A stretch of DNA of 64,000 nt from Escherichia phage Ecwhy_1. Made by a program: the position numbers and the translations under genes. The DNA lies in the sequence record MH791411.1. One strand, written 5' to 3'. Below are positions 11,330 to 16,312 of this stretch, piece after piece (position 1 is the stretch's first letter; the number at the start of each line of letters is the position of its first letter). The notes under the pieces were generated by a model that did not search any database, had not been told where the DNA came from, and saw nothing but the letters and a program-made list of their open reading frames with translations.

Positions 11330-11707
11330 CTACATGTGCATCGAAAATAACATTCTAAAATCATCACCACACAATGTTAACTCTGTAACTATCATTGCGT
11401 CCGAGAGGTATATGTACTGCCCTTCTACATAGTAGGGTGAAGTACATATCCTATCAAGCGATGTAAAGATTATAGAACTTTTGAACTCTCTTTGCAAGGG
11501 GATTTTTGTAAATTCGTAAAGAATGTTTTCTTTACAAATTGTATATCCAAACTTGCTAAGTCTTAAACCACCGCCAGTTCTGAAATTTTCAAAAATTGAC
11601 ATCAGAAGCATACGGTCTGTTAATTCAGCGTCTGATCCATGTACTTCTCTAACTTTTAAAAGTACATCGTTTTGAAATTCAGTACTGTTGTGTGGTTCAG
11701 GAATCAT
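11330..11707 (-). CDS. hypothetical protein
   Basis: 125-aa ORF ending just upstream of the tandem promoters. Confidence 0.45.
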   Translation of the reverse strand: MIPEPHNSTEFQNDVLLKVREVHGSDAELTDRMLLMSIFENFRTGGGLRLSKFGYTICKENILYEFTKIPLQREFKSSIIFTSLDRICTSPYYVEGQYIYLSDAMIVTELTLCGDDFRMLFSMHM

Positions 11708-11710
11708 AAA

Positions 11711-12103
11711 TTACATCCCCACGAAACCCTGTCTTGCTGCATATGAAGGAGCATCTTTAACTTTATAGTCTTGGACACCATCTTTACCAATTTTCGGACC
11801 CATATCTTTGGTTCCGAAGCAGCAATCAGTGGATTCATCAACTTCTTCAGTACTTTCATCATTATATCGAACATCCGATAAAATGTCACACGCTTTTTGA
11901 AGCTTTTCTACGATTTCTTTTTGATCTTCACCTGATTTAACCTTATCCACAATGTGGATAAGGCATTCGGTGATATCTTTAAGTAAATCGGTGGCAACAG
12001 CATCAGAAGGAGTCTCAACTGCAAAACTTTCTTCTTCAGTAGATTCTTCACTAGAAGTGATTTCATCTAATGCTTCAACCAATTCACGATAATTATATCC
12101 CAT
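11711..12103 (-). CDS. hypothetical acidic protein
   Basis: 130 aa, Glu/Asp-rich; ATG at 12103 abuts the stop of the upstream gene. Confidence 0.5.
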   Translation of the reverse strand: MGYNYRELVEALDEITSSEESTEEESFAVETPSDAVATDLLKDITECLIHIVDKVKSGEDQKEIVEKLQKACDILSDVRYNDESTEEVDESTDCCFGTKDMGPKIGKDGVQDYKVKDAPSYAARQGFVGM

Positions 12104-12104
12104 C

Positions 12105-13097
12105 TTATTTGTCCCCTAGAAATTGTTGATATTTCTTCTGGAGACTTTCGAAAATGTCTTCGACTTCTTCATCGCTTTCATCTTCTAGTTCTTCGTTACC
12201 TTCCACTGACTCATCACTCTCATTAACATTGAGTGGGTTGTCACCTAGAGCAGTACCTGGAAACTTAGGTTCAAATTTGTGAACACGGTTCTCGTTACCG
12301 TCATTGTCATAGTACTCTGGTTCAGGACGATTGTCAACATCTTCATCAACGACACGTCTCCAGTAGAACTTGTTACCCTTGGTAATAACAACAAAGTGGT
12401 CACCTTCTACACCATTAGTTTTAGCTTGACCGTCACGAACAGCATCAGCTTCAGTGTTGTAAGGACCAAAATCAGTACTGTCACCTTGTTCTTCATCTTC
12501 AGAGATGGTTAGGTCTGGTAGGAAAGTGTTTTCTTCAACTTTAACTTCAGTATCTGGGTTACCTTCTACTGAATATTCATCTTCTGGTTCGTCTTGAAGA
12601 CCAGCTAGAGATAGCATACGACTGAAATCGAATTCTTCTTCGATGATTTCTTCTTCTTCTTCCTCTTCTTCAACTGATTCTAGTTGAGGTTGACCGGAAA
12701 GATCTAAAGAAAACTCTTCTTCATCTGCAACACCAGGCTCTTCGAACTCTGCATCCATACTTACTTCTTCAGAATCACCACCAAAATCACCAGCTTCAGC
12801 AGATAGTGAGTCAGCAGCTACTTCCAATGGGTCTTCAACTGGTGCATCAATCGCACCATCCATTGTACCACCAACTTCTTCTTCAGCACCCGCACCAATG
12901 GAATCCATGTCGAGTGGAGCGATTGGTGGTAGAGAAGGGGTCATAGACCCCATAGAAGGAACTGGAGCAGCAACAGGAGAAGCTTGACGCTCTGCTTGAC
13001 CAGCTAATGCAAGCATACGAGATAGTGTTTCTAGATCTTCAGATTCTAGACCTGCGATATCGATTTTAACTTGTGCTTCATTAATTTTTTTAGCCAT
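12105..13097 (-). CDS. highly acidic low-complexity protein (poly-Glu tract; repeated SRML[AS]LAG motif)
   Basis: 330 aa; run EEEEEEEEIIEEE; motif LSRMLALAGQ and FSRMLSLAGLQ occur twice; AAGGA RBS and ATG. Confidence 0.6.
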   Translation of the reverse strand: MAKKINEAQVKIDIAGLESEDLETLSRMLALAGQAERQASPVAAPVPSMGSMTPSLPPIAPLDMDSIGAGAEEEVGGTMDGAIDAPVEDPLEVAADSLSAEAGDFGGDSEEVSMDAEFEEPGVADEEEFSLDLSGQPQLESVEEEEEEEEIIEEEFDFSRMLSLAGLQDEPEDEYSVEGNPDTEVKVEENTFLPDLTISEDEEQGDSTDFGPYNTEADAVRDGQAKTNGVEGDHFVVITKGNKFYWRRVVDEDVDNRPEPEYYDNDGNENRVHKFEPKFPGTALGDNPLNVNESDESVEGNEELEDESDEEVEDIFESLQKKYQQFLGDK

Positions 13098-13119
13098 TTT
13101 AAATAAATCCTTTTAGTTA

Positions 13120-14631: not shown

Positions 14632-14644
14632 GTGTTGATTCTCC

Positions 14645-15190
14645 TTAAGAAAGCATACGCAAAAGTTGTTCACGCTGCTCTGGACTTAATTTTTGTAGAG
14701 CATCAGGGATACTAGAACCTTGTGCTTTTGGCTGTTCCTGTGGTGCTGGTTGTGGAGCATTGTCAGGTTGAGCTTGTGGTGCAGGACGTTGTTGTTCTTC
14801 ACCTTTATCATCATCACGATAATCATTCATCAAGTCACGTGCTGCTGCCAATAGAGCAGAACCAACATCTTTAGGAGTAAAAGTACGACGACTGTTATTT
14901 CCCAGGTGTTTTATATCAAGGTTATTTCCTTTGAAGAATTGTGCAACATCAGCATATGGTACTGATGGCTGTGCTTTACCGTATTTGCGACCAACATAGC
15001 GTTTAAATTCAGCCCAAAGACGGTTTGCTTCTGCACCAACTTCTTGTGCACCTTGTTCTACTTGACCACTACCGAAAAAGCCTTTTACTTTTCCTTTTGC
15101 ACTATCTACTGCACTTTGTGAACGACTATATGGACGAGCTTCATTTAGCTCTTCATCATTATAGTCTAACATTTCATTAAGTATACTCAT
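14645..15190 (-). CDS. hypothetical protein (Gln/Pro-rich, C-terminal LLRMLS motif)
   Basis: 181-aa ORF; C-terminus EQREQLLRMLS resembles the SRMLxLAG motif of the neighbouring acidic protein. Confidence 0.5.
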   Translation of the reverse strand: MSILNEMLDYNDEELNEARPYSRSQSAVDSAKGKVKGFFGSGQVEQGAQEVGAEANRLWAEFKRYVGRKYGKAQPSVPYADVAQFFKGNNLDIKHLGNNSRRTFTPKDVGSALLAAARDLMNDYRDDDKGEEQQRPAPQAQPDNAPQPAPQEQPKAQGSSIPDALQKLSPEQREQLLRMLS

Positions 15191-15193
15191 GTC

Positions 15194-15727
15194 TCAATCC
15201 TTTTTACCAAAACCAGCACTCATATATTGAGAGTATTTATTGTCACTTTTAACTGCTTCAATCGCATCTTTAACTGCGGTTACAGCACGTTCTTCACCAG
15301 CTAAATCATGGCTGTCTTCTGGTTTGCCAAAATCAACACCAATTACTGGTTCGTAATCGTCAAAGTCAATATCATCTTCGAGTTCGGTCATTTCTTGTTG
15401 ACGTGGTTCATCTTTACTACGTACACGGATTAGAGCTTCAGTCATACTTAGTAGGTTGCCAATTTCATACATTAGTACGTTTGATTGAACACCACGGTGG
15501 CATTTGAAATCAAACATCCAAATTTCACCACAATCTAATTCATAAAAATCTAGTGGTCTTTCCATGAAAATAGTTTTCTTTAGTGCACCAATATCAAATG
15601 CATCATAACGATCCATTAGGCGTTGTGATACTTTACTTAGTTGCTCATTGGTAGGTTCAACTGCAAACTTGACTCGGTATTCAAAAACTGGTTTTTTATC
15701 CGTTAGGATTTGTTGTAATCTATTCAT
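15194..15727 (-). CDS. hypothetical protein
   Basis: 177-aa ORF, acidic C-terminal half. Confidence 0.5.
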   Translation of the reverse strand: MNRLQQILTDKKPVFEYRVKFAVEPTNEQLSKVSQRLMDRYDAFDIGALKKTIFMERPLDFYELDCGEIWMFDFKCHRGVQSNVLMYEIGNLLSMTEALIRVRSKDEPRQQEMTELEDDIDFDDYEPVIGVDFGKPEDSHDLAGEERAVTAVKDAIEAVKSDNKYSQYMSAGFGKKD

Positions 15728-15754
15728 TTTAATAACTCCATAAGGTCGTTTAAG

Positions 15755-16312
15755 TTATTTATTTCTGTTCATTGCTGCAAGCATTTCATTGCGGGTTTTA
15801 TGTGCAACCGCTTGGCCTTCGATGGCTGTTGGGTCACCGACTGGCTCAACTTTCTTAGGTTTAAGGTTTAGTTCGATTTCCATCTTATCTTTCTTGAGTT
15901 GGAGATCTACTAATTTAACGTCAGAATCAATGATTTTTGCATGAGCATCGAGAGCAATTTTCAACATAGAGTTTGCAGCGTTAATCATTTCTGCTGCAAA
16001 ACGGTCTTCACAGTTGAAAGCACGGTCGAAAATATCTTCAAACTTACGTTCTGCCATCTGTGCTAAACGATCTAATTGAGTTTTTCTTGCTGTAATATCT
16101 GGAAGTTCACGCAACTGAACACGCATAGCTTTCAATTTTTCCATTGCAGCTTTTGCCTCTTCTAGTGAAATTTCAGTTTCACTCTGTTCATCTTCGTCAT
16201 CCTGATACAAATCCATCTCTGTATCTTCTTCAGGCTCCTGGCCTGTCATTTCCATCCATTGTTGAGCACTAGGTAATCCCAGTGCTTCATCGACTTGTTG
16301 TTTAGGTTTCAT
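15755..16312 (-). CDS. hypothetical coiled-coil protein
   Basis: 185 aa, charged heptad-like sequence. Confidence 0.5.

Follow-up and report, generated by a model that had tools for sequence, protein, structure and literature searches.

A Conserved Block of Virion Protein Genes in Jumbo Phages

A preliminary description of a 64,000-nucleotide stretch of the Escherichia phage Ecwhy_1 genome (MH791411.1; hereafter the window, numbered from its first letter) pointed to a block of genes at positions 11330–16312 whose acidic, low-complexity products would share a short motif of the type SRML[AS]LAG. Here we analyze this block and, above all, its fifth gene, g5, whose polyacidic product carries the motif twice. 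The segment is indeed filled by seven consecutive minus-strand open reading frames (ORFs), as had been stated. We number them in transcription order, from g1 (15755–16312) to g7 (11330–11707), and list them here with orthologues from the related phages RaK2, CBB, phAPEC6, and 121Q:

15755–16312, minus strand: g1, 185 amino acids (aa), with an acidic N terminus and a conserved helical domain
15194–15727, minus strand: g2, 177-aa virion protein; orthologues RaK2 gp047 and CBB_210
14645–15190, minus strand: g3, 181-aa virion protein; orthologue RaK2 gp048
13120–14631, minus strand: g4, virion protein of 503 aa from the ATG at 14631; orthologues RaK2 gp049 and phAPEC6 gp268c
12105–13097, minus strand: g5, 330-aa polyacidic virion protein, predicted to be mostly disordered; orthologues RaK2 gp050, CBB_213, phAPEC6 gp267c, and 121Q gp560
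11711–12103, minus strand: g6, 130-aa acidic virion protein; orthologues RaK2 gp051 and CBB_214
11330–11707, minus strand: g7, 125 aa, conserved, the last gene of the unit

In a megablast search, positions 11000–17000 matched Escherichia phage BF17 over their full length at 99.7% identity and 121Q, PBECO4, and phAPEC6 (genus Asteriusvirus) at ~83% identity; weaker matches were to jumbo phages of Klebsiella (RaK2), Salmonella, Erwinia, Xanthomonas, and Vibrio. The window thus belongs to a RaK2-like myophage genome of ~350–380 kb, and its sequence places this E. coli jumbo myophage in the 121Q/PBECO4/RaK2 group. The block is a conserved seven-gene module of such RaK2-like (Asteriusvirus-type) phages: the order of a gp4-like gene, g1–g7, a MoxR ATPase gene, and a gene for a DUF2201/VWA protein is kept in ten phages from at least six host genera (121Q, phAPEC6, A4, EJP2, CBB, XbC2, Munch, RaK2, XaC1, and a marine Vibrio phage). 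Full-length profile matches assigned g2–g6, in order, to phrog_14802 (E = 2.8e-99), phrog_16152 (5.3e-95), phrog_16305 (4.8e-204), phrog_15988 (2.8e-124), and phrog_14971 (1.5e-44); by these matches g2–g6 are direct orthologues of proteins annotated as virion structural proteins in RaK2-like phages. A Pfam scan of all seven block proteins gave sub-threshold matches only.

The idea that the block proteins might be packaged is borne out for g2–g6 by published virion proteomes of relatives. RaK2 gp047–gp051 were all detected in virions by tandem mass spectrometry (MS/MS). CBB virions yielded CBB_210, CBB_213, and CBB_214, GAP32 the orthologues of CBB 210–212, and phAPEC6 virions gp267c, gp268c, and gp270c; in 121Q, gp557–gp561 are annotated as structural. 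We conclude that the orthologues of g2–g6 are virion proteins. Orthologues of g1 and g7 were not detected in the published virion proteomes. The block as such is not new, g2–g6 being already catalogued as virion proteins, without a published function or location.

g5 Contains Two Conserved Copies of a Short Motif

g5 contains 94 Asp and Glu residues against 20 Lys and Arg residues, which gives a net charge of −74 and an isoelectric point (pI) of 4.05. Its portrayal as an extremely acidic protein with a poly-Glu tract and two copies of the motif proved accurate. The features of g5 are as follows (pLDDT, predicted local distance difference test):

12987–13097, minus strand: N-terminal module, residues 1–37, with a conserved I-N-E-A, a short, likewise conserved KIDIAGL stretch, and helix 19–37 ending in LAGQAE
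12996–13022, minus strand: motif copy 1, SRMLALAGQ, residues 26–34, uncleaved in CBB virions
12648–12671, minus strand: poly-Glu tract E8, residues 143–150
12594–12623, minus strand: motif copy 2, SRMLSLAGLQ, residues 159–168, with predicted helix 158–164
12498–12518, minus strand: conserved P-D-L-x-[LI]-x-E, residues 194–200, just upstream of the folded domain, a candidate site for a T4 gp21-type protease
12354–12473, minus strand: beta-alpha-beta-beta domain predicted by AlphaFold, residues 209–248 (pLDDT ~92–96 over residues 211–250)
12117–12164, minus strand: C-terminal helix predicted by AlphaFold, residues 312–327

A six-frame search of the 64-kb window found the string RML.LAG at exactly two places, both within g5. 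The compositional bias of g5 might make such a repeat a chance product of low-complexity sequence, but a pair of non-acidic 8-mers at ≥7/8 identity arose in only 4 of 1,000 composition-preserving shuffles of g5. We aligned 86 g5 homologues, most of them at 35–45% identity. Copy 1 is followed by QAE in 80 of the 81 sequences that have it. Copy 2, present in 68 of the 86, stands directly after the poly-Glu tract in the form F-x-R-M-x-x-L-A-G-[IL] and is followed by [ILV]-x-E in 56 of these 68 homologues; in the window itself, copy 2 has LQDE at this point. Of the 86 homologues, 36 have a third copy in the degenerate form D[DES]L[AS]G[ST]V, and 81 keep the P-D-L-x-[LI]-x-E sequence. Because both copies are kept across ~80 homologues despite low overall identity, shuffled sequences rarely produce a comparable repeat, and the motif recurs in distant proteins (see below), a chance origin is refuted.

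A hidden Markov model (HMM) of the motif, built from 75 distinct g5 instances, found no further copy in six-frame ORFs of the window or in 74 kb of phAPEC6 head and baseplate DNA, and its best score outside g5 lay within the range of shuffled sequences. Hence, contrary to what had been proposed, SRMLxLAG is not common to the block proteins; only g5 carries it. The motif is genuine and more general than first thought, but it is confined to one phage protein. A literature search for the motif strings found no paper.

The N-Terminal Module of g5 Is Portable

In an AlphaFold model of g5 built with the 86-sequence alignment, copy 1 lies inside helix 19–37 (pLDDT ~80) and copy 2 is contained in a short helix, 158–164. 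Both copies are thus predicted helices flanked by disordered acidic linkers. Apart from the beta-alpha-beta-beta domain and the C-terminal helix, the rest of g5 is predicted to be disordered (pLDDT <50), and the acidic residues are located in these disordered parts, without secondary structure; the model leaves that of the KIDIAGL stretch undefined. Searches of PDB sequences with g3, g4, and g5 profiles gave nothing meaningful, and a Foldseek comparison of the g5 model with viral structures returned only its own orthologues. Some g5 homologues have the beta-alpha-beta-beta domain in triplicate; in P0048, from a metagenome, the three copies stand in tandem.

The N-terminal 37 residues, whose helix ends ...LSRMLALAGQAE, are the best conserved part of g5. 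When 1.84 billion representative proteins were searched exhaustively with an HMM, 86 of them matched, and those with E values of ~1e-10 to 1e-4 were proteins of 240–680 aa that carry the g5 module internally. In these distant proteins the module reads ...KLNEAQYNISINGLETxDAETLSQMLSLAGQAE; an acidic low-complexity stretch follows, and after it a second motif of the ...LR[IL]AG[IV].. type, e.g., EIAEALRIAGIQLDE or LNDLLALSGMD. Since it is found internally in unrelated larger proteins of uncultured T4-like phages, the module is portable.

Two distant g5-like genes on uncultured T4-like contigs have as neighbors a gp15-like gene and a gene for a large DUF8360 protein. On the one contig that was scanned with PHROGs, the DUF8360 protein was identified as a baseplate wedge subunit; this contig also has a g2-family match (phrog_14802, E = 5.6e-6) and a tail-tube-like gene. 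The joint presence of g2-like and g5-like genes on an uncultured contig shows that the g2–g5 linkage is older than the RaK2 clade. On contig L022, a g2-like gene (7907–8467) and a g5-like gene (10001–12013) flank the gp15-like gene. When the distant family member P0294 was compared with isolated phages by tblastn, the only matches were to the g5 N-terminal module of RaK2-like phages; the module is thus absent from isolated phages of other clades.

The N-Terminal Part of g5 Is Retained in Virions

The supplementary peptide table for CBB, which is based on fully tryptic searches only, lists two peptides of the g5 orthologue, IDVQGLESNDLETLSR and MLALAGQAENK, six times each. The latter spans the end of copy 1 and the following Glu; copy 1 is therefore present and uncut in CBB virions, where residues 12–38 of the orthologue are kept. 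This rules out copy 1 as part of a propeptide that is cleaved off and discarded. The single-peptide coverages of RaK2 gp050 (5.3%) and phAPEC6 gp267c (4.9%) would fit only the 16-residue tryptic peptide 12–27. The N-terminal peptide of g2, a protein abundant in CBB virions, is retained as well. Tryptic peptides of the major capsid protein (MCP) propeptide were not seen in the CBB table despite 56–68% coverage of the MCP.

Among the CBB samples inspected, peptides from the C-terminal domain of g5 were found in samples 11–13, N-terminal peptides were absent from the low-mass samples 12 and 13, and samples 02 and 05 had N-terminal peptides alone. Such a distribution is compatible with a C-terminal g5 fragment separated from the N-terminal part. 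The position of a gel slice was rejected as a measure of size, being too noisy to decide. We conclude that g5 is disordered and polyacidic and that its conserved helical motifs, which stay in the virion, are part of a portable module.

The g5 Motif Resembles the Tail of the Scaffolding Protein

The orthologous head module of phAPEC6 contains T4-type prohead machinery (homologues of gp20, gp21, gp22, and gp23): a T4-type portal (Portal_T4), a Peptidase_S77 protease of the gp21 family, a coiled-coil scaffold, and a Gp23-family MCP in which MLTE|SATSG occupies the place of the T4 gp23 cleavage site. At the N terminus, [LIM]-x-E-[ASG] was found in four of four head-core genes (scaffold, two small core proteins, and MCP) and also in g3 (..ELNE|A, residues ~17–19), g5 (..KINE|A, residues 5–8), and g6 (M..YRELVE|A, a conserved [LIM]-x-E-[AS] at residues 8–11), versus 5 of 131 other annotated proteins. 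The background rate is 4–6%, and the leaders are mutually dissimilar.

The C termini of the scaffolds read ...DDMAFLKELDVLSGINKK in phAPEC6, ...LEELSILSGIIKK in RaK2, ...FLNEISRNAGISKNR in CBB, ...DLDRLTKIAGIRK in the Vibrio phage, and ...EELRRLAGIK in PA5oct; among 120 listed scaffold homologues, nearly all tails end ...[RK][KR]LAG[LI] or ...AGI[RK]K. These tails of gp22-like scaffolds from the RaK2, PA5oct, and Vibrio jumbo lineage are built like the g5 motif, i.e., an acidic run and an amphipathic helix (hydrophobic at −2, −5, and −8 from Gly) that ends in [AS]-G-[IL]. The two differ in that the scaffold motif stands at the extreme C terminus and is followed by Lys/Arg, whereas the g5 motif is internal, with acidic residues after it. 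Binding of the scaffold tail to the coat protein is assumed by analogy with the scaffolds of P22 and phi29.

A Possible Role of the LAG Helices in Docking g5 inside the Head

The preliminary description took the repeated motif for a docking peptide that binds a common partner. A conserved, helical, and portable motif fits this view, and the scaffold tail is a candidate for what the motif imitates. The LAG helices would then serve as short docking elements similar in kind to the conserved tail that ends the phage's T4 gp22-like scaffold, and would bind the scaffold-tail site in the prohead, at the inner face of the gp23-like shell or in the core. g5 would thereby be recruited into the head, and other block proteins may be too. 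A T4 gp21-type protease would cut g5 at [LI]-x-E between copy 2 and the folded domain, while the N-terminal module stays; such a cut is suggested by the [ILV]xE after copy 2 (56/68) and by PDLx[LI]xE (81/86). The block would be a cluster of internal head proteins, which would be candidates for the inner-body rod of 121Q and phAPEC6 and possibly be ejected with the DNA. Bubblegram imaging has revealed a phiKZ-like inner body in both of these phages (91 x 18 nm in phAPEC6), and in phiKZ five of the six inner-body genes form a cluster. With basic folded parts (pI 9.9) beside acidic linkers, g3 and g4 would be suited to being embedded in DNA. That g5 is an internal, partly processed head protein docked in the manner of a scaffold tail, within a block of internal head proteins, is the reading that we favor, tentatively: it may well be right, but we stop short of calling it probable. 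The more far-reaching proposal appears rather unlikely, namely, that g2–g6 make up the inner body of 121Q/phAPEC6-type capsids and that the LAG helix, together with its 37-aa module, serves as a general, transferable, and retained capsid-targeting signal, mimicking the scaffold tail, by which many uncultured T4-like phages load disordered polyacidic cargo.

Several observations weigh against docking inside the head, the location that we infer for the block proteins. The neighbors of the block are tail, neck, and completion genes, the portal-protease-scaffold-MCP module lying elsewhere, and in a distant uncultured phage g5-like and g2-like genes stand beside gp15, baseplate-wedge, and tail-tube genes. 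The pattern [LIVMF]..[LIVM]..[LIVMN][AS]G[ILM], derived from the scaffold tails, speaks for a link, having only two matches in 142 annotated proteins of these phages (37,964 aa), the scaffold C terminus and g5 copy 2, but it was written after both sequences had been seen. A scaffold-tail HMM scored the g5 motifs no higher than shuffled controls, and the reverse test failed too. When run against window ORFs and phAPEC6 head and baseplate ORFs, this HMM found the scaffold only, and against distant family members it gave a weak enrichment (2 hits at ≥4 bits versus 0.1 expected). Similarity at the profile level is not significant, and we treat the likeness as a lead, not a result. The CBB gel slices are noisy, sample 01 holding proteins of all sizes, and the fragmentation of g5 could be degradation. 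A match of g6 to the phiKZ_IP family (Pfam PF12699) was rejected (18.6 bits, E = 0.0012, versus a cut-off of 27; any match in 2 of 10 orthologues). Finally, the authors of the phAPEC6 study proposed RCC1-domain proteins as DNA-organizing candidates.

The strongest rival reading assigns the block a tail, neck, or head-completion role. Its proteins would sit in the joining region or the tail lumen, as an analogue of the T4 gp2/gp3/gp4 cluster or as tube proteins that leave first, and the LAG helices would dock g5 on a neck or tail protein. This would agree with the position of g1–g7 after the tail sheath gene, three tube paralogues, and a gp4-like gene; with the uncultured T4-like contigs, where the g5-like gene adjoins gp15 (tail sheath stabilizer), g2-like, baseplate-wedge, and tube-like genes; and with the N-terminal module, which unlike T4 targeting peptides is retained uncleaved. 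However, head and tail genes are interleaved in T4-like genomes, so that synteny is weak evidence, and the likeness to the scaffold tail points to the head. Polyacidic disordered proteins with conserved [LI]-x-E sites are, moreover, typical of T4 prohead-core components. We regard a tail or neck role as a serious possibility, which on balance we doubt. A different account would make the motif nothing but a recognition and cleavage site of the maturation protease, cut after LAG-x-x-E, with the motif parts discarded and no docking. The protease is of the T4 gp21 family, and both copies have Glu at +3 after the Gly (QAE in 80/81, [ILV]xE in 56/68), yet the repeatedly detected CBB peptide MLALAGQAENK spans the putative copy 1 site and refutes cleavage there, the window's copy 2 has LQDE and not [LI]xE, and the same helix ends scaffold tails without a Glu after it. 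Cleavage as the sole function is quite improbable.

Two further readings place the acidic chains in other roles. g5 could be a packaged anti-defense decoy, a polyanionic DNA mimic that leaves the particle along with the DNA and ties up host restriction enzymes or nucleases; the preliminary description had raised DNA mimicry and anti-restriction for the extremely acidic proteins. The net charge and the long D/E-rich segments of g5, the presence of its orthologues in virions, and an internal, ejected location are all compatible with this. Against it, the structure prediction puts the acidic residues in disordered segments and not on a folded, DNA-shaped surface, so the rigid DNA-like charge pattern is not predicted, and Pfam, PDB sequence, and Foldseek searches gave no link of g5 to known anti-restriction families; its acidic segments, unlike mimics of the Ocr/ArdA type with their folded, DNA-like arrays of carboxylates, have no predicted secondary structure, and g5 has no similarity to solved or viral predicted structures beyond its own orthologues. 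A conserved core gene with invariant assembly-like motifs, kept in phages of hosts from Vibrio to Xanthomonas, would also be atypical of fast-evolving anti-defense genes. The decoy is unlikely. The block proteins could instead form the external "hairy" filaments on the tails and capsids of phAPEC6 and CBB, with the LAG helices as anchors to the sheath or shell. Flexible fibers have been seen, only their bases being visible in reconstructions, and g4 and g5 have long flexible linkers; but single disordered chains would not yield filaments visible by negative stain, and the CBB authors expected hair genes to be absent from GAP32. We consider such hairs very unlikely because the block is kept in phages not reported to have them (RaK2, GAP32, and the marine Vibrio phage).

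Docking inside the head, our favored reading, has partial parallels in known systems. The T4 capsid-targeting sequence (CTS) of IPI–III and Alt, MKTYQEFIAE, is, as proposed for the LAG helix, a short peptide that brings unrelated proteins into a prohead of the gp20/gp21/gp22/gp23 type, and its cargo is processed by the gp21-family protease at [LI]-x-E; g3, g5, and g6 have a conserved N-terminal [LIM]-x-E-[AS], as the head-core proteins do. The LAG helix has no sequence similarity to the CTS and differs from it in being ~16 rather than ~10 residues long, internal, present in two to three copies per protein, retained in the virion rather than cut off, and confined to a single phage protein. The phiKZ inner-body proteins (gp89, 90, 93, 95, 97, and 162; PF12699) are also encoded in a virion-gene cluster of a jumbo phage with a bubblegram inner body, with head-protease processing expected; they share no homology with the block proteins, the protease here is an S77 enzyme, and the expected cleavage motif differs. 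T4 gp67, gp68, and acidic internal peptides are highly acidic components of the head interior, small or disordered, as g5 would be. g5 differs from gp67 and gp68 in that it is a larger protein encoded elsewhere, includes a folded C-terminal domain, and does not resemble them in sequence, and this phage clade has a pair of its own between the portal and protease genes. In phAPEC6 this pair, at the position of T4 gp67/gp68, consists of the very acidic gp228c (282 aa; L013:19216–20064), a virion protein (5 peptides), and gp229c (75 aa; L013:20166–20393), both with an N-terminal [LI]-x-E-[AS].

What is new is a conserved, repeated helical motif that stays in the virion. It is part of a portable module common to distant uncultured T4-like phages, and it looks like the tail of the scaffolding protein that the phage itself encodes. 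If it does act in docking, it would offer a handle on which proteins form the inner body of the 350-kb phages 121Q and phAPEC6 and on how non-shell proteins are loaded into T=28 heads, and, like the T4 CTS, it would be a candidate for tagging foreign proteins that are to be packaged.

Other Proteins of the Block

The block was said to be acidic throughout. This holds clearly for g5 and g6 and less so for g1 and g2, while g3 and g4 combine basic folded parts (pI 9.9) with acidic or Pro-rich linkers. Features of g3 and g4 are as follows:

14648–14665, minus strand: LLRMLS at the C terminus of g3, not a motif copy
14335–14616, minus strand: g4 repeat unit 1, residues 7–100 (residues 7–98 align with 295–386 in an hhalign self-comparison, E = 1.7e-16)
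13930–14226, minus strand: g4 repeat unit 2, residues 137–235, divergent (hhalign self-comparison, E = 3e-7)
13450–13752, minus strand: g4 repeat unit 3, residues 295–395, basic, pI 9.9

The related record fEgEco12 has a "terminase small subunit" label somewhere in the region of the block, presumably on the g1 orthologue; Pfam and PHROGs gave g1 no function that would back it. g2 consists of a ferredoxin-like core (residues 12–105), an acidic linker, and C-terminal helices. In g3, a conserved L-x-E at about residue 19 precedes a basic core (residues 20–125, pI 9.9), which a P/Q-rich linker joins to a helix at the C terminus. The label "Hsp70 heat shock protein," which RefSeq and PHROGs attach to g3 orthologues, was rejected, as no HSP70 or other Pfam domain was found at E values up to 0.1. 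LLRMLS does end g3, as described, but its supposed relation to the g5 motif is a coincidence: its Arg is R, A, K, or S in orthologues, the LAG is missing, and it receives no score from the motif HMM.

The internal repeats reported for a 504-aa protein are present in g4 but number three units of ~95 aa rather than four, and from its ATG the protein has 503 aa, the 504-aa version having one extra codon. A Pro/Glu linker and a conserved C-terminal helical domain complete g4. The middle unit is missing in RaK2 and Munch. Each unit is made of two hairpin-like halves, the mutual similarity of which is not significant (E = 0.014–0.07).

Genes and Promoters Flanking the Block

The block is bounded as follows:

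16343–16771, minus strand: upstream neighbor, a T4 gp4-like head completion protein with a TnsA-like nuclease fold
11179–11304, minus strand: downstream boundary, two tandem perfect sigma-70 promoters

Upstream, the tail sheath gene is followed by three consecutive tail-tube paralogues (364, 258, and 228 aa; 16772–19430, minus strand), the gp4-like gene, and then g1–g7. The T4 late-promoter octamer TATAAATA has 0 matches in window positions 1–64000, where shuffles predict 8.0 ± 2.8, even though a gp55-like late sigma factor is encoded by these phages.

Both sigma-70 promoters (11179–11212 and 11271–11304, minus strand) read TTGACA-N16-TGnTATAAT, with 12/12 matches where 0.01 are expected by chance, and the pair sits in a ~92-bp direct repeat that separates g7 from the gene for the MoxR ATPase. 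Given these two perfect promoters, the MoxR and DUF2201/VWA gene pair looks to be driven by host RNA polymerase, separately from the structural block. The pair (8200–9609 and 9685–11013, minus strand) encodes a protein with DUF2201_N (putative metallopeptidase) and VWA together with a MoxR-type AAA ATPase. It is N4 gp24/gp25-like, and the DUF2201/VWA protein is labeled "HNH endonuclease" in several records. The phAPEC6 orthologue of the MoxR ATPase was found in virions, with 6 peptides and 19% coverage.

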